A stretch of 42,823 nucleotides of DNA from Candidatus Omnitrophota bacterium (GCA_023247155.1 JAHFGZ010000001.1:20540-63362), one strand, 5' to 3'. Numbered from the stretch's first letter, positions 33 through 16,836 are shown. Notes: generated by a model from the sequence alone, not told the origin. Translations and numbers: made by a program.

Positions 33-104
33 TGGGCCGGGGACGGATCGAACGTCCGACCAACTGGTTATGAGCCAGCTGCTCTGCCACTGAGCTACCG
101 GCCC
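33..104 (-). tRNA. tRNA-Met (anticodon CAU), elongator type; tRNA-Ile2 (lysidine CAU) cannot be excluded
   Basis: Reverse complement is GGGCCGGTAGCTCAGTGGCAGAGCAGCTGGCTCATAACCAGTTGGTCGGACGTTCGATCCGTCCCCGGCCCA. Acceptor GGGCCGG/CCGGCCC, D stem GCTC/GAGC, anticodon loop CTCATAA, T arm GGACG-TTCGATC-CGTCC. Positions 1-72 are paired (G-C), so it is not an initiator. CCA is not encoded. Confidence 0.9.
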
Positions 105-9179: not shown

Positions 9180-9722
9180 TTACGGACAGGCGGCATTCAC
9201 TGCTTGGTCGATGGTATTGCTCGCGACAGTGGCCTGCGTACCCTGCGCGACTGTCGTGCAGTGGCGCACGATCCCGCTCTCATCTGCAAAGAACGACCGC
9301 GTGCCGGTATTGTTGACTACCGAGGGGGTGGCTTGGAGCGTGTAATTGGTGCCCGCAGCATTCCCCGTGTAGGTCCACAGAAACCCTTGCACGAGCCCAG
9401 TGGCTGCGGTGGCACCTCCAGCCATCGTATTGCAGAACGACGGCGGTCCAAAGTCTGGCGTTGGCGCAGCTTCTACTGCGCAGTTCGCCTCATACATGGC
9501 GGGTTGCCACCCGACGCCGGTCGTAGGATACAGATTGTTCACAGACCGGAACATCTCTAGCGACGAAACGAGCGCTCGCATATTCCCGATGGCCGCCGAC
9601 TCGTTGGCCGTCGTGCGGCCGCGGAGCACGTTCGGGATCGCGATCGCCGCCAAGAGCGCGATGATGGCGACCACGATCATGATTTCAACGAGCGTGAAGC
9701 CTCCTTCGCGTGAACGTGTCAT
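9180..9722 (-). CDS. pilA: type IV (major) pilin, prepilin with N-terminal cleavage/methylation motif
   Basis: Leader MTRSREG then G|FTLVEIMIVVAIIALLAAIAIPNVLRGRTTANESAAIGNMRAL. Four Cys in the C-terminal half. Start placed at ATG 9722 because AAGGAGG lies 7 nt upstream; the track start at 9746 has no SD. Confidence 0.9.
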   Translation of the reverse strand: MTRSREGGFTLVEIMIVVAIIALLAAIAIPNVLRGRTTANESAAIGNMRALVSSLEMFRSVNNLYPTTGVGWQPAMYEANCAVEAAPTPDFGPPSFCNTMAGGATAATGLVQGFLWTYTGNAAGTNYTLQATPSVVNNTGTRSFFADESGIVRHCTTVAQGTQATVASNTIDQAVNAACP

Positions 9723-9826: not shown

Positions 9827-9856
9827 AAAAAAGCCATTGCCGCATGGACAATGGCT
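9827..9856 (-). terminator. intrinsic terminator inside the pilin leader
   Basis: Minus strand AGCCATTG-TCCATGCGG-CAATGGCT followed by TTTTT; lies 105 nt upstream of the pilin ATG. Confidence 0.65.
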
Positions 9857-10042
9857 CTTCGTGCTTTCCAGCGGCAACCCAGCCACCCTCAGGACAGACG
9901 TAGACGTTTCCGCCATCCTGACCGCCGGTCCCGGGAAGACCAACGGCCTGACGGCTTCCTCACGCCTCGCCAGCTCCCAAGGGTCTGTGGTTTTCCGACC
10001 CCGCCTCACGGCGAGTGTGGCCTGAACGCTGAATCAGTTGTC
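9857..10042 (-). ncRNA. unclassified structured leader RNA or sRNA upstream of the pilin gene
   Basis: Non-coding stretch between a promoter-like site and the terminator. Contains GC-rich hairpins, e.g. CUCGCC-GUGA-GGCGGG (GNRA loop), GGUC-N11-GACC and UCAGGA-N21-UCCUGA. No credible ORF on either strand. Confidence 0.4.
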
Positions 10043-10048
10043 GCCCCA

Positions 10049-10077
10049 ACTATGCCATACAACCCCTACGGAGTCAA
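10049..10077 (-). promoter_or_regulatory. sigma70-type promoter for the pilin leader
   Basis: Minus strand TTGACT (10077-10072), 17 nt, CATAGT (10054-10049). The -10 context ATAGTTGG(G/T)GCG is shared with the riboswitch promoter at 16807-16836. Confidence 0.45.
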
Positions 10078-10102
10078 GCAGTTCTTTGGAGGGCGCTGGG
10101 GA

Positions 10103-10125
10103 AACATGGTGTCTGACACCATGTT
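10103..10125. repeat. 10-bp-stem palindrome AACATGGTGT-CTG-ACACCATGTT just after the pilC stop (possible weak terminator or REP-like unit)
   Basis: Perfect inverted repeat with core GTGTCTGACAC. The 3' tail on the minus strand is UCCCCAG, a poor U-tract. Confidence 0.4.
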
Positions 10126-10127
10126 AG

Positions 10128-11339
10128 CTAGTGGCTGACCAGGGTGGAGATCTTGAAGATGGGCAGGAAGAGCGCGATGACGATGCCGCCGATGACCACC
10201 CCCAGGATCGCGATGACCAGCGGCTCAATGATGCTCGTCAGGGCGGTGACGGCGGCGTCCACCTCGTTCTCATAGAAGTCGGCGATCTTGGTCAGCATCT
10301 TCTCCAGCTCGCCGGTCTTCTCTCCCACGGAGATCATCCGGGTCACCATCGTGGGGAATACCTGGCTCAGGGCGAGCGGGCTCGCGATGTTCTCCCCTTC
10401 TTTGATGCTGGCCCTGGCCGCCAGGACCGCCCCCTCCACCACCTTGTTCCCGGCCGTCTTGGCCACGATCTCCAGGGCAGTGAGGATCGGCACGCCGGAT
10501 TTCACCAGGGTGGCGAGGGTGCGGGCGAACCGCGCGATGAAGACTTTCTGCAGCAGCTTGCCGATGACGGGGACCCGTAAGGTGAGCCGGTCACACCAGA
10601 GCCGGCCGGTGGGTGTCCCGATGTACAGGCGCGCGCCGATCACCAGGGCCAGGCACGCCAGCACCTCGTAGGCGAGATACTTCCCGATGAACTCGCTCAA
10701 GCCCAGGAGGAGCTGCGTCGGCACCGGGAGCTCACCGCCCAACGCCAGGAAGATCTCCTTGAACTTCGGCACGATGACCACGAGCAGGAAGGTGGTGATC
10801 CCGATGGCCAGGACGGTGACGAACGCCGGATAGAAGAGGCTGGCGCGCACCTTCCGCTGGAGCACGCTGACCTTTTCGATGTACGCGGCCACCCGGTCCA
10901 GGATCTCGTCCAGCCGGCCGGAGGATTCCCCCGCCCGGACCATGTTGACGAAGAAGTGGGAAAACGCCCGCGGGTGCCGGCCGATGGCCTCGGAGAGGCT
11001 GGACCCGGCTTCGATGTCGCCCCGCACCTTCTTGAGGATCTGCCGGAACGTCCGGTCCTCCATCTGGTCCCCCAGGACGTCGAGCGCCTGAGCGATCGGG
11101 ATGCCGCTGTCGACCATCGTCGCCAGCTGGCGGGAAAAGATGACGAGCTGCTCGGATTTGACGTGGGACTGGCCGACCTTCAGGACCGCGAACGCGCCGT
11201 GCCCGCGCTCCTCGATCGACAAGACGACGAACTCCCGCCTCCAGAGCTGCTCGATGAGGGTGTTGCGCGACTCGGCATCCAGCGTGCCGGTATGCGTCTT
11301 GCCGAGCTTGTCCTTCACCACGTACCCGAACGTCGGCAT
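10128..11339 (-). CDS. pilC: type IV pilus platform protein PilC (GspF family)
   Basis: 403 aa with two T2SS-F repeats and three TM regions. ATG at 11339, 15 nt after the pilB stop. Confidence 0.93.
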   Translation of the reverse strand: MPTFGYVVKDKLGKTHTGTLDAESRNTLIEQLWRREFVVLSIEERGHGAFAVLKVGQSHVKSEQLVIFSRQLATMVDSGIPIAQALDVLGDQMEDRTFRQILKKVRGDIEAGSSLSEAIGRHPRAFSHFFVNMVRAGESSGRLDEILDRVAAYIEKVSVLQRKVRASLFYPAFVTVLAIGITTFLLVVIVPKFKEIFLALGGELPVPTQLLLGLSEFIGKYLAYEVLACLALVIGARLYIGTPTGRLWCDRLTLRVPVIGKLLQKVFIARFARTLATLVKSGVPILTALEIVAKTAGNKVVEGAVLAARASIKEGENIASPLALSQVFPTMVTRMISVGEKTGELEKMLTKIADFYENEVDAAVTALTSIIEPLVIAILGVVIGGIVIALFLPIFKISTLVSH

Positions 11340-11354: not shown

Positions 11355-13052
11355 TTACTCTTCTGACGTCACGGCGACCACTTCCTCGAGGGTCGTCAGG
11401 CCCATCGCGGCCTTCTGCAGGCCGTCCTGACGCAACGGGACCATCCCCAGCGCCTTGACGGCGTGCTCCTTGATCTCCCACGACTGGGCCCGCGAGACAA
11501 TCAGCTCCCGGATCCGCTCGTCCACCTCAAAGACCTCGATGATGCCCAGGCGGCCCCGGTAGCCCGTCCCGCGGCAGTGCCGGCAGCCCTTGGCCTCGAA
11601 GAAGGTCGTCTCCTTGGAGGGGCGCACGTCCAGGCGCTCGAGGAGGGCGGGGCTCGGCGTGAACGGCTCGCGGCACTTGGCGCACAGCGCGCGGACGAGC
11701 CGCTGGGCTTCGATGAGGCTGACGCTGGAGGCCACGAGGAACGGCTCGACCCCCATGTCGATGAGCCGCGTCACCGCCGAGGCGGCGTCGTTCGTGTGCA
11801 ATGTCGAGAGCACCAGCTGCCCCGTCAGGCTCGCCTTCATGGCGATGTCGGCGGTCTCGAAGTCCCGGATCTCCCCGATCATCACGATGTCCGGGCTCTG
11901 CCGCAGGAGGGCGCGGAGGCCGCTCGCGAACGTCAGCCCCGCCTCCGGATGGACCTGCACCTGCGTGATGCCTTCAATCTGATACTCCACCGGGTCCTCA
12001 ATGGTGATGAGGTTCCGCGTCGGTTGGTTCAGCTGGGTCAAGACGGAATAGAGCGTGGTCGATTTCCCCGAGCCGGTGGGGCCGGTCACCAGGATCATCC
12101 CGTGAGGCCGTTGCACCGCGGCCTTGAACTGCTCGATCGACCCCGGGAGGAACCCCAGGTGATCCAGGCCGATCGACAGGTTGGCCTTGTCCAGGAGCCG
12201 CAGGACCGCCTTCCCCCCGTGCGTGATCGGGAGGATGGACACACGGAAGTCCACCTCCCGCTCCTCCAGCCGCACCTTGAACCGGCCGTCCTGCGGGGTC
12301 CGCCACTCGGTGATGTCGAGGCCGGACATGATCTTGAGCCGGGTCAGCATCGGGTTCTGCACCGCCTTGGGGAAGCGGTGGGATTCGACCAGGCGCCCAT
12401 CCACCCGATAGCGCACGCGCAGCGTATCCGCCATCGGCTCCAGGTGGATATCCGAGGCGCGGGACCGCATCGCTTCGATCACCAGGAGGTTGAGCACCTG
12501 GACGATCGGCGCGTCGGTGTTCTCCTGCTCGCTGAGCAGCAGGGCGATCGCCGTGTCGATGGTGTCGTCCGGCCCTTCGCTGCCGGAGCCGCGGTCCATC
12601 GCGTCCGCCGCCGGCCCCTGTTGCGCGTAGGCCTGCTCGATGGCCCGACGGATCTCCACCTCGGAGGCCAGCACCGGGTCGATGGCGACCTGGGTCAGGG
12701 CCTTGAGATCATCCACAGCCACGATGTTCATCGGGTCGCTCATCGCCACGACCAGGCGGTCCCCGAACTTCGCCAGCGCGACCAAGGTGTATTGGCGGGC
12801 GAACCGTTCCGGGATGAGCCGGGTCACGGCGGGATCCATGCGGTACTTCTCCAGGGAGATCATGGGGAGGCTGAATGCCTTGGACAACAGCTCAATGAGC
12901 TTGGATTCCGAGATCACGCCCTGCTCGATGAGCAGGCGGGCGAAGCTCTTGCCGTTCTGGGACGACTCGGTCTCCAGCTTGTCCAGCTGCTCCGGCTTGA
13001 CGAGCTGCTGCGCGATGAGCAGCTCGGCGACCCGCTGTCTGAAGCTGCTCAT
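11355..13052 (-). CDS. pilB: type IV pilus assembly ATPase PilB (GspE family), paralogue 1
   Basis: 565 aa. Walker A GPTGSGKSTT, Walker B DPDVIMIGEIRD, His box TGQLVLSTLHTN, tetracysteine CAKC...CRHC, N-terminal GspE-N/MshEN-like domain. ATGA overlap with the upstream paralogue. Confidence 0.93.
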   Translation of the reverse strand: MSSFRQRVAELLIAQQLVKPEQLDKLETESSQNGKSFARLLIEQGVISESKLIELLSKAFSLPMISLEKYRMDPAVTRLIPERFARQYTLVALAKFGDRLVVAMSDPMNIVAVDDLKALTQVAIDPVLASEVEIRRAIEQAYAQQGPAADAMDRGSGSEGPDDTIDTAIALLLSEQENTDAPIVQVLNLLVIEAMRSRASDIHLEPMADTLRVRYRVDGRLVESHRFPKAVQNPMLTRLKIMSGLDITEWRTPQDGRFKVRLEEREVDFRVSILPITHGGKAVLRLLDKANLSIGLDHLGFLPGSIEQFKAAVQRPHGMILVTGPTGSGKSTTLYSVLTQLNQPTRNLITIEDPVEYQIEGITQVQVHPEAGLTFASGLRALLRQSPDIVMIGEIRDFETADIAMKASLTGQLVLSTLHTNDAASAVTRLIDMGVEPFLVASSVSLIEAQRLVRALCAKCREPFTPSPALLERLDVRPSKETTFFEAKGCRHCRGTGYRGRLGIIEVFEVDERIRELIVSRAQSWEIKEHAVKALGMVPLRQDGLQKAAMGLTTLEEVVAVTSEE

Positions 13053-14764
13053 CCCACCACCTCCCCGATGGTGGTGCGAAACACCTCATCGAGGGTCGTG
13101 CTGTGCGCCACCACCTTCGCCAAGCCATGGTCCCGCAGCGTCTTCATGCCTTCCTTGCGGGCCGCGTTCTGCACCTCGCGCTCCGGCGCCCGCCGGAGGA
13201 TCAGCTCCCGGGTCTGGGGGCTCATGATGAGGGTCTCGGCGATGACCTCCCGCCCGGCGTAGCCCGACTTGAAGCACGCGCGGCAGCCGGCGCCTCGGAC
13301 GAGCTCCAGCGGCTCCCCCCGCTTATCCACCAGGCCCAGCTTCTCGGCCATCCCCTTCGGAGGGCGGTAGCGCTCGGGGCATTTCGGACAGACCTTGCGG
13401 ACCAGCCGTTGGCCGACGACCGCCATGACGCAGGAGTTGATGAGGAAGGGCTCCATCCCCATGTTGACCAGCCGGATGACCGAGCCCGCCGCGCTGTTGG
13501 TGTGGAGCGTGCTCAGCACCAGGTGGCCCGTCAGCGCGGACTTGATCGCCATGTCCGCCGTCTCGGCGTCGCGGATCTCCCCCACCATGATCACGTCGGG
13601 GTCTTGGCGCAGGATCGACCGCAGCGTCTTGGCGAACGTCAGCCCGATGTCCGTCTTCACGTTGACCTGGTTGACCCCTCCCAGGTCGAACTCCACCGGG
13701 TCCTCGACCGTCACGATGTTTTTCTCGGGGCTGTCGATCATCTTCAGCAGCGCGTAGAGCGTCGTGGTCTTGCCGGACCCCGTCGGGCCGGTCGACAGGA
13801 GCATCCCGTGCGGCCGGCGGGCGCAGGCCTTCAGCCGCTCCAGGTCCTCGGGGGAAAACCCGAGGGTGTCGATGTCGAGCTTGACCTCGCCCTTGTCGAG
13901 GACCCGGACGCAGACGTTGCCGCCGAAGCTGGAGGGGAGGACGGACACCCGGAAATCGATCAGGCGCTCATCCACGCGGAAGTTGAAATGGCCGTCCTGC
14001 GGCAGCCGGCGCTCGGCGATGTTGAGCTCCGACATGATCTTGATGCGGGAGACCACCGCTGGCTGGAGGTGCTTGGGCGGCGCCGGGCCCTCCTGGAGGA
14101 CGCCATCGACCCGGTAGCGGACCCGGACGCTCTGCTCCCGCGGCTCGATGAACAGGTCCGAGGCGTGCATCCGGACCGCGCGGGTCAGGATGGCGTCGGT
14201 CAGTTTGATGACCGGCGCTTCCTGCGTCTGCCGCAACAGCTGCTCCGCCTCCGACCCTTCCTCGCCGGTGATGACCGTATGGGAGTTGGATTCGGTCTTC
14301 CTCACCATCTCGCGCAGCGTCTCCTCGACCCCGGTCCCATAGAAGGTGTCGATGGCGTCCCGGATGTCCTTGGGCGTGGCCAGCACCGGGCTGATCGAGA
14401 GGCCGGTCATCGTGGCGAGGATATCCAGGGCGAACACGTTCAACGGATCGGCCATGGCGATGGTGAGCGTCTGGCCGGTGCAGGAGATGGGGATGAGCTG
14501 GTATTGGAGGGCGAGGTCGCGGGGGATCAGCGCCTTCAGGCCGACATCCAGCTTCATCCGGGACAGGTTGATCGGCGGGATGCCGATGCCCTGGCTGACG
14601 GCCGCGACCAGGTCCGCCTCGCTCACCAGGCCGCGCTCCATCAGGAGGGCCTGCAGGCTTCCCCCCTGCGTCCGCTGCACCGCGAGGACGCCTTCCATCT
14701 GCTCCGGCGTGAGGAGGCCCCGGGAGAGCAGGGCGTCAATGATGCGTTTCTGAAGGCTCGCCAT
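13049..14764 (-). CDS. GspE/PilB-family secretion ATPase, paralogue 2
   Basis: Walker A GPTGSGKTTT, DPDVIMVGEIRD, TGHLVLSTLHTN, CPKC...CRAC. Start placed at ATG 14764 (MASLQKRIIDALLSRGLL), which begins the N-terminal MshEN-like domain. The track extension to 14857 is Arg-rich and overlaps the upstream gene. Confidence 0.88.
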   Translation of the reverse strand: MASLQKRIIDALLSRGLLTPEQMEGVLAVQRTQGGSLQALLMERGLVSEADLVAAVSQGIGIPPINLSRMKLDVGLKALIPRDLALQYQLIPISCTGQTLTIAMADPLNVFALDILATMTGLSISPVLATPKDIRDAIDTFYGTGVEETLREMVRKTESNSHTVITGEEGSEAEQLLRQTQEAPVIKLTDAILTRAVRMHASDLFIEPREQSVRVRYRVDGVLQEGPAPPKHLQPAVVSRIKIMSELNIAERRLPQDGHFNFRVDERLIDFRVSVLPSSFGGNVCVRVLDKGEVKLDIDTLGFSPEDLERLKACARRPHGMLLSTGPTGSGKTTTLYALLKMIDSPEKNIVTVEDPVEFDLGGVNQVNVKTDIGLTFAKTLRSILRQDPDVIMVGEIRDAETADMAIKSALTGHLVLSTLHTNSAAGSVIRLVNMGMEPFLINSCVMAVVGQRLVRKVCPKCPERYRPPKGMAEKLGLVDKRGEPLELVRGAGCRACFKSGYAGREVIAETLIMSPQTRELILRRAPEREVQNAARKEGMKTLRDHGLAKVVAHSTTLDEVFRTTIGEVVG

Positions 14765-15230
14765 CGCCTGCCCCGTTGTCTGCCCCCTTCGGCCCCGCAT
14801 AATGCTTGGTGATCGCCTTCTCGATCTCCGTCGGCGTGCTGACGAACGTCTGGACAATGCACTTCGTCAGGAGCTCGATCTCCTCGATCGCCTTGACGTT
14901 GGAGGGATCGGCCATGACCAGGGTCAGGGCGTTCCCGATGCGGTCGATGGGGATCAGGCAGTACTGCCGGGCGACCCCTTCGGGGATCAGGGCCGTCAGC
15001 CCGCCGTCGATCTCATAGTTGTCGAGCGGCAAATAGGGAAAGCCGTATTGCGCGGTCAGCGCCAGGGCGATCTCCTCTTCCGTGGTGTACCCCAGGTGGA
15101 TGAGCACCTGGCCCAGCAGCCCGCCGTGCGCCTTCTGCTTCGCCAGGGCCTCCTCGAGCTTCGCCCGCGTGAGGACGCCGCGCTCAAGGAGGATCTCCCC
15201 AATCCGCTTGGTGATGATCCGTTTGGCCAT
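14736..15230 (-). CDS. stand-alone GspE-N/MshEN domain protein (predicted c-di-GMP receptor)
   Basis: 164 aa. RIGEILLERGVLTRAKLEEALAKQ, a 5-aa spacer, then LLGQVLIHLGYTTEEEIALALTAQ match both halves of the published MshEN motif RLGxxLLxxGLLxxxxLxxxLxxQ. No ATPase domain. Confidence 0.8.
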   Translation of the reverse strand: MAKRIITKRIGEILLERGVLTRAKLEEALAKQKAHGGLLGQVLIHLGYTTEEEIALALTAQYGFPYLPLDNYEIDGGLTALIPEGVARQYCLIPIDRIGNALTLVMADPSNVKAIEEIELLTKCIVQTFVSTPTEIEKAITKHYAGPKGADNGAGDGEPSETHH

Positions 15231-15251: not shown

Positions 15252-16328
15252 TCACCGGTTCATGATCCGCGTGAGGTCGTCCGGGTCGCTGGAGCGCGCC
15301 AGCGCGTATTCCAGCGTGATGACCCGGTTGGCGTACAGCTCATAGAGCGACTGGTTCATCGTCTTCATGCCCTCTTTCTGCCCCGTCTGGATCACCGAGT
15401 AGAGCTGATGGATCTTTTGCTCGCGGACGAGCGAGCGGACCGCGTGGTTCACCATGAGGAACTCCATCGCCAGCACCCGACCGCGGCCGCCCGCCTTGGG
15501 GATCAGCTGCTGGGAGATGACCCCGAGGAGCTCCAGGGAGAGCTGGACGCGGACCTGGTTCTGCTGGCTCGCCGGAAAGACATCCACGATGCGGTTCACC
15601 GTCTGCATCGCGTCGGAGGTGTGGAGGGTGGCCAGGACGAGGTGGCCCGTCTCCGCGACGATCAGCGCTGTCTCGATGGTCTCGAGATCGCGCATCTCCC
15701 CGATGAGGATGACGTCGGGATCCTGCCGCAGGACGTGCTTCAGCCCCTGGGCGAACGACTGGGTGTCGCTGCCCACCTCCCGCTGGTCCACGATGGACCG
15801 CTTGCTCGTGTGCGTGTACTCGATGGGGTCCTCGATGGTGACGATGTGGAACGATTTGTTCGTATTGAGGTAATCCACCATGGCGGCGAGCGTCGTGGTC
15901 TTCCCTGACCCGGTGGCCCCGGTGACGAGGACCAGCCCCTGGGGCTTCTCGCACAGCTCGGTCATCAGCTTGACCGGCAGGCCCAGCTCCGCGAAGTTCA
16001 TGATCCGAAACGGGAGCATCCGCAGCGCCATGCCCACGTAGCCTTGCTGGACGAAGTAGTTGGCGCGGAACCGCGCCAGCCCCTCCACCGAAAAGGCGAA
16101 GTCCAGCTCCTTCCACCGCTCGAAGCGCTCGATCTTCTCCGGCGCGAGCAGGCTGTAGGCGAGCTCCTTCACCTCGGTGCCGGAGAGCGCTGCGTGGTCC
16201 GTCGCGACCAGGCGGTCGTCCAGGCGCAGGCGCGGCGGACTGTTCGCGCCCAGGTGGAGATCGGTCGCCCCCTGCTCGACCATGGCCCGCAGGAGCTCCT
16301 CCATGGTGGGCTTCACTGACACGGCCAT
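15252..16328 (-). CDS. pilT: twitching motility (retraction) ATPase PilT
   Basis: 358 aa from ATG 16328 (MAVSVKPTMEELLRAMVEQGATDLHL). Walker A GATGSGKTTT and PilT signature AVRSLVREQKIHQLYS. The upstream 101 codons of the track ORF overlap the RHH gene and leader. Confidence 0.93.
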   Translation of the reverse strand: MAVSVKPTMEELLRAMVEQGATDLHLGANSPPRLRLDDRLVATDHAALSGTEVKELAYSLLAPEKIERFERWKELDFAFSVEGLARFRANYFVQQGYVGMALRMLPFRIMNFAELGLPVKLMTELCEKPQGLVLVTGATGSGKTTTLAAMVDYLNTNKSFHIVTIEDPIEYTHTSKRSIVDQREVGSDTQSFAQGLKHVLRQDPDVILIGEMRDLETIETALIVAETGHLVLATLHTSDAMQTVNRIVDVFPASQQNQVRVQLSLELLGVISQQLIPKAGGRGRVLAMEFLMVNHAVRSLVREQKIHQLYSVIQTGQKEGMKTMNQSLYELYANRVITLEYALARSSDPDDLTRIMNR

Positions 16329-16600
16329 CAGGAGCGCCTCCCCCGCATCTTGTGCATCATGGCATCCACGATCCGCTGCTCGAACTGCCCCGCGGTGCTG
16401 ACCCCCTCGCCGGTCAGGTTGAGCCGCTTCAGCGCATTGACCATGGCGGCGAGGATCTGGGTCCTGGAGAGCTTCACCCCTGAGGAGAACTGGGCGTCCT
16501 TGCCCAGCTGATCGAGGTAATCCACCTGCTCGCGGTTGAGCGAGGCGATGACGCGATGGGCGTGACGGTGATTGCCGGTGTCTCGTGGCGATTGTCGCAT
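16328..16600 (-). CDS. small ribbon-helix-helix-like protein, translationally coupled to pilT
   Basis: 90 aa from ATG 16600. HRVIASLNREQVDYLDQLGKDAQFSSGVKLSRTQILAAMVNALKRL fits a strand-helix-helix pattern. Its TGA overlaps the pilT ATG (ATGA). Confidence 0.5.
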   Translation of the reverse strand: MRQSPRDTGNHRHAHRVIASLNREQVDYLDQLGKDAQFSSGVKLSRTQILAAMVNALKRLNLTGEGVSTAGQFEQRIVDAMMHKMRGRRS

Positions 16601-16619: not shown

Positions 16620-16658
16620 GGTGCCAGGCACTCCGCCTTCGGCGGAGAGCCAGGCACC
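16620..16658 (-). promoter_or_regulatory. long 5'-UTR hairpin between the riboswitch terminator and the first ORF
   Basis: Minus strand GGUGCCUGGC-U-CUCCGCC-GAAG-GGCGGAG-U-GCCUGGCACC, about 16 bp with one U.U mismatch. Ends 20 nt before the ATG at 16600. Confidence 0.5.
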
Positions 16659-16659
16659 G

Positions 16660-16695
16660 AAAAAAAGACAGACGGCCGGTGAAAAGGCCGTCTGT
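16660..16695 (-). terminator. intrinsic terminator (expression platform of the GEMM-I riboswitch)
   Basis: Minus strand ACAGACGGCC-UUUUCACC-GGCCGUCUGU, then C, then UUUUUUU. Confidence 0.8.
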
Positions 16696-16696
16696 T

Positions 16697-16795
16697 CGAT
16701 CCCGGTGGCAGCCCAACCATCCCCGCCGTGGGCGGGGACTTGCGGCTTTGCGCCCCCACGTCACCGTGGGTTTGCCCTTTTCACGCGGTCAATGT
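16697..16795 (-). promoter_or_regulatory. c-di-GMP class I (GEMM-I) riboswitch aptamer
   Basis: Minus strand ...GUGAAAAGGGCAAACC-CACG-GUGA-CGUG-GGGGCGCAAAGCC-GCAAGU-CCCCGC-CCACG-GCGGGG-AUGGUUG-GGCU... reproduces the GEMM-I hallmark GGCAAACC / GNRA-capped hairpin / GGGnCGCAAAGCC / second hairpin with a tetraloop-receptor-like internal loop. Confidence 0.75.
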
Positions 16796-16806
16796 CAAGC
16801 GCACCA

Positions 16807-16836
16807 ACTATACCACATGGCGCGAACCCGCATCAA
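16807..16836 (-). promoter_or_regulatory. sigma70-type promoter driving the riboswitch and pilus-motor operon
   Basis: Minus strand TTGATG (16836-16831), 18 nt, TGG-TATAGT (extended -10; hexamer 16812-16807). Confidence 0.55.

Follow-up and report, generated by a model that had tools for sequence, protein, structure and literature searches.

A c-di-GMP-I riboswitch with a terminator platform as the probable OFF switch of a type IV pilus motor operon in Candidatus Omnitrophota

A c-di-GMP-I (GEMM-I) riboswitch with its own promoter probably controls the type IV pilus motor operon of a Candidatus Omnitrophota bacterium through an intrinsic terminator, with c-di-GMP turning the operon OFF. The element lies in a stretch of 42,823 nucleotides (GCA_023247155.1, JAHFGZ010000001.1:20540-63362), referred to here as the window, whose positions are used throughout; all features described below are on its minus strand. 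A GEMM-I riboswitch with a terminator platform ahead of this operon had been proposed in an initial annotation, which gave no direction of control; the riboswitch is confirmed by the present analysis, and the evidence points to OFF. From sequence and folding models we infer ligand binding, the sign of regulation and the co-transcription of all six genes. The case is built on the conserved promoter, on the covariation of the aptamer and terminator among orthologous leaders, and on a conserved complementarity between the ligand-pocket strand of the aptamer and the apex of the terminator.

Genomic setting and promoter of the leader

The minus-strand order of the locus is PBP2, RodA, the leader, an ORF of 90 aa, PilT, a stand-alone MshEN protein, PilB1, PilB2 and PilC. 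Related loci were retrieved by a search with the small protein encoded by the 90-aa ORF (19 genome loci and 62 metagenome loci), and the order of rodA, leader, small ORF, pilT and MshEN gene is conserved in the genome loci. The sequence quoted in the initial annotation matches the minus strand of 16836..16660 exactly.

The leader is preceded by a sigma-70-type promoter (16836..16807) composed of the -35 hexamer TTGATG (16836..16831), a spacer of 18 nt and the extended -10 element TGgTATAGT (16815..16807); in a promoter scan of the window, its hexamers gave 9 of 12 matches, with TG upstream of the -10. The TTGATG element and 18-nt spacer read at first from the sequence are borne out by this TATAGT element and by its conservation, as 62 of 64 distinct orthologous leaders keep the TTGnnn-N18-TATAGT architecture together with the TG (TTGATG itself is present in 51 of the 64, and TGGTATAGT in 45). 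Conservation of the promoter architecture argues for a transcription start upstream of the aptamer, and transcription of the motor-operon leader would start near 16800. No terminator is present between rodA and the motor-operon promoter, and read-through from rodA could add transcripts to the motor operon.

The interval between the terminator and the first ORF holds a very stable, near-perfect hairpin of 39 nt (16658..16620; about -40 kcal/mol). This hairpin was not found in the closest relatives (L001 and L020), and a check for a dispersed repeat found no second copy in the window; it has the appearance of an insertion particular to this lineage and probably plays no part in the switch. No obvious Shine-Dalgarno sequence is present just 5' of the ATG of the first ORF.

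The aptamer and its predicted ligand

Scanning of the whole window with cmscan against all 4227 Rfam models identified a c-di-GMP-I aptamer of 83 nt at 16785..16703. The match is to RF03167 (clan CL00126; gathering score 59), covers model positions 1-80 of 80 and reaches 61.9 bits with an E-value of 2.3e-12; a second CL00126 model also attains its own gathering score on the aptamer and was masked through clan competition. The covariance-model check proposed in the initial annotation therefore returned a significant match within the GEMM-I clan, but with RF03167 rather than RF01051 as the top model. The aptamer of L001, nearly identical to that of the window, scores 53.8 bits with RF01051 (gathering score 35).

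In the fold, P1 pairs CCG(C)GUG (16788..16782) with CACCGG (16707..16702), P1a contains the pairs G16775-C16750 and C16774-G16751, and P2 carries an AAG/AUGG internal loop (CAAG/GAUGG). The P1b hairpin is capped by GUGA, confirming in sequence the GNRA tetraloop described earlier, and GNRA loops cap P1b in 20 of 20 aligned orthologues. The equivalents of G20, A47 and C92 (Vc2 numbering), whose ligand-contact roles have been described (PMC5888326), fall at 16776, 16749 and 16708, respectively. These three columns are invariant in a MAFFT alignment (A1) of 20 compact orthologous aptamers from Omnitrophota genomes and metagenomes, and each of 48 distinct orthologous leaders has A at the position-47 equivalent.

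Covariation was assessed on the same alignment, in which 93.8% of the cells of helices P1, P1a, P1b and P2 are paired and 16 of the 24 pairs are compensatory; no shuffle out of 500 attains these values, and the paired share is 44% or less once the structure is slid by 1-3 columns. Chance resemblance to GEMM-I is ruled out by the E-value and by this covariation. The GEMM-I junction is not reproduced in the unconstrained full-length MFE fold, as expected, because the aptamer depends on tertiary structure. Judged by its sequence, the element is a canonical c-di-GMP-I aptamer with the G20/A47/C92 set. The GEMM-I assignment made at the outset is upheld by the covariance-model match and the orthologue covariation, and with G20, A47 and C92 all in place, c-di-GMP rather than cGAMP stays the predicted ligand.

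The top-scoring model raises the question of whether the aptamer belongs to the c-di-GMP-I-GGC variant class (RF03167), with a ligand other than c-di-GMP. RF03167 tops Rfam on the window at a score above its gathering score, and is also the top model for the orthologues L002, L003, L005 and L009; nevertheless, membership of the variant class is very improbable. According to the two Rfam consensus lines in the cmscan alignments, from which the variant-defining base was taken, RF03167 has CGCGAAGCC where RF01051 has CGCAAAGCC, the two differing at the Vc2 A47 equivalent, so that “GGC” would denote G20, G47 and C92. The window reads CGCAAAGCC, and its sole mismatch to RF03167 in that block is the defining column: the variant-defining G at position 47 is replaced by A, both here and throughout the 48 orthologous leaders. 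Furthermore, RF01051 is the best model for the closest relative, L001, and for six other orthologues (L004, L006, L007, L015, L018 and L019). Since A47 is found in the window and in all orthologues, the higher RF03167 score stems from similarity across the sequence as a whole rather than from the defining nucleotide, and the GGC label is, on these consensus lines, an artefact of that similarity. This constitutes an annotation trap, as automated Rfam annotation would mislabel the canonical-A47 aptamers of the clade as GGC variants. As for cGAMP, the GEMM-Ib element of Geobacter pilM has A at position 20, and GEMM-Ib selectivity is said, from work of Kellenberger in 2015 and of Nelson in 2015, to require A20. 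It is very improbable that the present element is a cGAMP-selective, Geobacter-like GEMM-Ib riboswitch: Geobacter GEMM-Ib elements do control pilus genes on the same scaffold (pilM operon, PMC9262584), but the window (16776) and every aligned orthologue have G at the position-20 equivalent. On selectivity, PMC9262584 says no more than that the equivalent position guides selectivity between two cyclic dinucleotides.

Expression platform and direction of control

An intrinsic terminator (16695..16660) is located between the aptamer and the first ORF. Its 10-bp stem ACAGACGGCC/GGCCGUCUGU (16695..16668), with 7 G-C pairs and a loop of 8 nt, is followed by C 16667 and U7 (16666..16660). The stem, the C and the U7 agree with the initial annotation, but the spacing given there does not: the stem lies 7 nt, not 5, past the model-defined end of the aptamer, and starts 14 nt after the GGCU with which the annotated aptamer closed. 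Across 42 orthologous leaders, 92.6% of the cells of the terminator stem are paired and 6 of 10 pairs are compensatory, values (percentage paired and covariation score) matched by none of 500 shuffles. Among the orthologous leaders, the apex of the terminator (CCUUUUCAC.GG) is unusually conserved, and the base of the stem varies.

The conserved apex is complementary to a segment at the 5' end of the aptamer. The 5' strand of this antiterminator, CCGCGUGAAAAGG (16788..16776), comprises the P1 5' strand and the A-rich junction, including G19 and G20, while the 3' strand, CCUUUUCACCGG (16687..16676), runs from the top of the terminator 5' arm through the loop into the opening bases of the 3' arm; together they form 12 pairs in the window. 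Over 42 distinct leaders, pairing with the 5' segment extends to 92.2% of cells, whereas slid controls give 34-61%; the mean duplex energy of the two strands is -17.6 kcal/mol, and that of shuffles -10.7 kcal/mol (p<=0.05 in 39 of 52 leaders). Only 2 of the 11 antiterminator pairs covary in the 42 leaders, because both strands are conserved (the 5' strand being constrained anyway through aptamer function), and the support is therefore one of conserved complementarity rather than covariation.

Folding energies for the window were computed with ViennaRNA, which leaves out tertiary contacts and folding kinetics, and amount to -65.7 kcal/mol with the antiterminator enforced, -63.4 kcal/mol with the Rfam aptamer pairs enforced (a structure that also contains the terminator) and -66.5 kcal/mol for the unconstrained, terminator-bearing full-length MFE. 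In these models, the antiterminator state and the state with aptamer and terminator are nearly iso-energetic. For window transcripts that end before the 3' arm of the terminator, the antiterminator is the MFE structure; among the orthologous leaders, it is contained in the truncated-transcript MFE of 41 of 43, and the terminator is contained in the full-length MFE of 36 of 43. As modelled, such a fold pattern is characteristic of a transcriptional OFF switch with two stable states.

Under low c-di-GMP, the 5' P1 strand of the aptamer and the junction (CCGCGUGAAAAGG) would capture the emerging terminator apex CCUUUUCACCGG, and the resulting antiterminator would block the terminator stem, letting RNA polymerase read into the operon. 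Under high c-di-GMP, the bound ligand would keep P1 and the junction in their aptamer fold; no antiterminator could then form, the 10-bp terminator with its U7 would fold, and transcription would stop near 16660, the net effect being that c-di-GMP switches the motor operon OFF. The model makes two predictions. A change of the loop from CCUUUUCAC to CCAAAACAC with the stem kept should cause constitutive termination, and the added change of GUGAAAAGG to GUGUUUUGG should restore the antiterminator and destroy the aptamer, giving constitutive read-through.

The opposite sign, with termination averted and the pilus motor operon induced upon c-di-GMP binding, has general biology on its side: c-di-GMP often activates type IV pilus functions, and pilA1 of C. 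difficile is under a class II ON riboswitch. Likewise, MshE and PilB-type ATPases bind c-di-GMP (PMC5013675), the operon itself encodes a c-di-GMP receptor domain (MshEN), and the full-length MFE pairs P1-flanking bases beyond the U tract. Nevertheless, induction by c-di-GMP is unlikely here in view of the layout of the leader. The aptamer ends at 16703, clear of the terminator stem (16695..16668), and once bound therefore cannot sequester the terminator directly. The only conserved alternative pairing is that of the 5' ligand-pocket strand of the aptamer with the terminator apex, so that a bound ligand would make this strand unavailable. Furthermore, in the four leaders that have no terminator (L006, L014, L015 and L018), the start codon lies 2-6 nt past P1, an arrangement that suggests occlusion by the folded aptamer and a translational platform for the same gene, and that is compatible with repression by the folded aptamer. 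Taken on the sequence evidence, the sign of regulation is likely to be OFF.

Relation to characterised GEMM-I riboswitches

The family owes its name to the link of GEMM-I RNAs with genes for pili and motility. An association of riboswitch and pilus is accordingly expected for the family; the host here belongs to an uncultivated phylum. Among characterised riboswitches, the nearest counterpart is Cd1, which precedes the flgB flagellar operon of C. difficile; it likewise combines a GEMM-I aptamer with an intrinsic terminator in a transcriptional OFF switch of a large motility operon, and its aptamer and terminator are able to form side by side, in competition with an antiterminator (PMC9262584). 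The antiterminator of Cd1 is made with the 3' aptamer-stabilising strand (A + T + H, PMC9262584), whereas that of the Omnitrophota element uses the 5' P1 strand and the G20 junction. Moreover, the Omnitrophota platform is much shorter (7 nt between aptamer and terminator), its target is the type IV pilus motor instead of flagella, and its host phylum is Omnitrophota. Use of the 5' ligand-pocket strand is a well-supported and conserved, if somewhat unusual, variation of the expression platform, and not a new principle.

Vc2 of V. cholerae, the structural archetype, has the same helices, the GNRA loop of P1b, the receptor-like loop of P2 and the G20/A47/C92 set (PMC5888326), but acts on translation (PMC9262584), whereas the Omnitrophota element has a terminator platform. 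The pilM GEMM-Ib element of Geobacter shares the GEMM-I scaffold and the transcriptional control of a polycistronic pilus operon (PMC9262584); it is, however, an ON switch that senses cGAMP and has a terminator overlapping the aptamer, in contrast to the G20, the separate terminator and the predicted OFF direction of the Omnitrophota element.

Variation among orthologous leaders

Matches to the GEMM-I clan are found directly upstream of the small ORF in 11 of the 19 genome loci, and the aptamer motif is recognisable in 48 distinct orthologous leaders. In 23 of these 48, the spacing between GGCAAAC and GCAAAGC exceeds the canonical 25 nt by 4-87 nt, and in 22 by at least 36 nt (insert-bearing leaders: L008, L010-L013, L016, L026, L027, L029, L030, L037, L041, L043, L045, L051-L053, L056-L059 and L069). 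In the folded examples, the inserts add one hairpin or two to the P1a/P1b junction; these lie 5' of P1b or else between GGGAC and GCAAAGCC, and frequently have a recurring CGCCAC..GUGGCG-like sequence in common. The Rfam scan at gathering scores misses most of the insert-bearing leaders; in effect, the two Rfam models miss roughly half of the orthologues, namely those with junction inserts, which may represent an undescribed multi-helix sub-architecture of GEMM-I. Other departures from the common arrangement were also observed: about 1.5 kb separates the small ORF from pilT in L014 and L015, and in L017 the promoter is kept and the aptamer is apparently absent.

The motor operon and its products

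The first regulated gene is the small ORF of 90 aa (16600..16328), which has no family match. It is followed by pilT (16328..15252; retraction ATPase, Pfam T2SSE, E 2e-47), the gene of the stand-alone MshEN protein (15230..14736; Pfam MshEN, E 2e-18), two pilB paralogues (14764..13049 and 13052..11355; Pfam T2SSE and MshEN in both) and pilC (11339..10128; Pfam T2SSF). The six genes are tightly packed or overlapping, the stop of the small ORF and the start of pilT sharing TGATG. Between the start of the small ORF at 16600 and the end of pilC at 10128, the window scan revealed neither a convincing terminator nor a minus-strand promoter (the promoter scan uses the sigma-70 consensus, and internal promoters of other type may go unrecognised), which makes a six-gene operon plausible.

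The earlier statement that no further terminator occurs until after pilC agrees with the scan for the interior of the operon. After pilC, however, comes a 10-bp hairpin, AACAUGGUGUC-AGA-CACCAUGUU (10122..10098), which directly follows the pilC stop and is succeeded by UCCCC with no U tract, and then a second unit of promoter, riboswitch and terminator. The hairpin may serve as a 3'-end stabiliser or a weak terminator of the motor operon; it is not a canonical terminator.

Among the regulated genes listed in the initial annotation, PilT, MshEN, the two PilB paralogues and PilC are confirmed by Pfam, but the label “RHH” for the first ORF has no sequence or fold support. The small ORF gave no Pfam match even at E<=10 and none in NCBIfam, no PDB sequence match below E 0.6, and a best Foldseek match at E 2; its AF2 model (pLDDT 72) is all-helical and has no strand, the N-terminal beta-strand of an RHH protein included. 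An RHH identity is unsupported by any of these comparisons (Pfam, NCBIfam, PDB, AF2 and Foldseek), a monomer model being unable to fully exclude a dimeric RHH. The small protein has 464 homologous matches, of which the best 120 listed are 75-99% identical. Every source name among the matches listed is one of Candidatus Omnitrophica/Omnitrophota, with a few related loci deposited as Planctomycetales; the PilC homologues likewise point to Omnitrophota. The protein has an almost invariant core of 66 residues (HAHRVIASLNREQVDYLD.LGKDAQFSSG.KLSRTQILAAMVNALKRLNLTGEG...QFEQRIVDAM), and its gene is directly upstream of pilT in most related loci.

The c-di-GMP-binding portion of MshEN consists of tandem 24-residue motifs that together span 53 residues (PMC5013675). 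In the stand-alone MshEN protein, residues 9-61 match positions 1-53 of NCBIfam NF053729 (c-di-GMP_motif) with 60.8 bits against a cut-off of 38, and the motif spacing is identical to that of V. cholerae MshE (PMC5013675); motif 1 fits the relaxed published pattern, and motif 2, which is without the leading basic residue, does not match it. PilB1 is borderline with the same model (38.8 bits against the cut-off of 38), PilB2 falls below it (32.7 bits), and neither fits the published relaxed 24-residue pattern. As opposed to both PilB paralogues, only the stand-alone MshEN protein is a confident predicted binder of c-di-GMP. Since this protein passes NF053729, the proposal that c-di-GMP is sensed at both the RNA and the protein level in one operon is a fair reading. 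A search for GGDEF motifs in the window found none, so there is no local diguanylate cyclase to cite.

A second riboswitch at the pilin gene

The region that separates pilC from the pilin gene (9722..9180) holds a second c-di-GMP-I riboswitch unit (10077..9827). Its parts are a promoter found in the promoter scan (10077..10049), an aptamer (10031..9870) that matches RF01051 with 42.5 bits (gathering score 35, E 4e-5), and, just upstream of the pilin gene, a terminator identified by folding (GCCAUUG...CAAUGGC followed by U6, about 9855..9827). The aptamer has an insert of 89 nt in P2 and a swapped P1a pair (GCC...GGA instead of GGC...GCA), and keeps G20, A47 and C92. In the fold of this unit, the antiterminator pairs the P1 3' strand with the loop and 3' arm of the terminator, a classical arrangement that would again imply OFF. 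Of 7 relatives retrieved via PilC homologues, 6 have a recognisable pilin leader (L082, L083 and L085-L088), and in only 2 of these does it attain the Rfam gathering score. The initial annotation of the motor riboswitch does not mention this second riboswitch at 10031..9870.

With the second element, the motor operon and the pilin/pilMNOPQ operon each have their own c-di-GMP riboswitch. Omnitrophota are, to our knowledge, uncultivated and without genetics, and the conserved pair of riboswitches provides a direct and testable statement on surface attachment or motility in the phylum, namely that high c-di-GMP would mean less pilus machinery. Beside the expected family association, it is this dual-riboswitch wiring, together with the first ORF and the insert-bearing orthologues, that stands out. 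A wider reading, about which we are rather more doubtful than confident, is that the G20-bearing strand invades the apical loop of a stand-alone terminator in an unusual switching scheme, and that the recurrent paired hairpins in about half of the orthologues form a multi-helix sub-architecture, possibly with an added function; with the second riboswitch, the entire pilus machine of the phylum would be wired to c-di-GMP through RNA. Elsewhere in the window, a tRNA gene with the anticodon loop CUCAUAA (anticodon CAU) was identified at 104..33 (68.3 bits).
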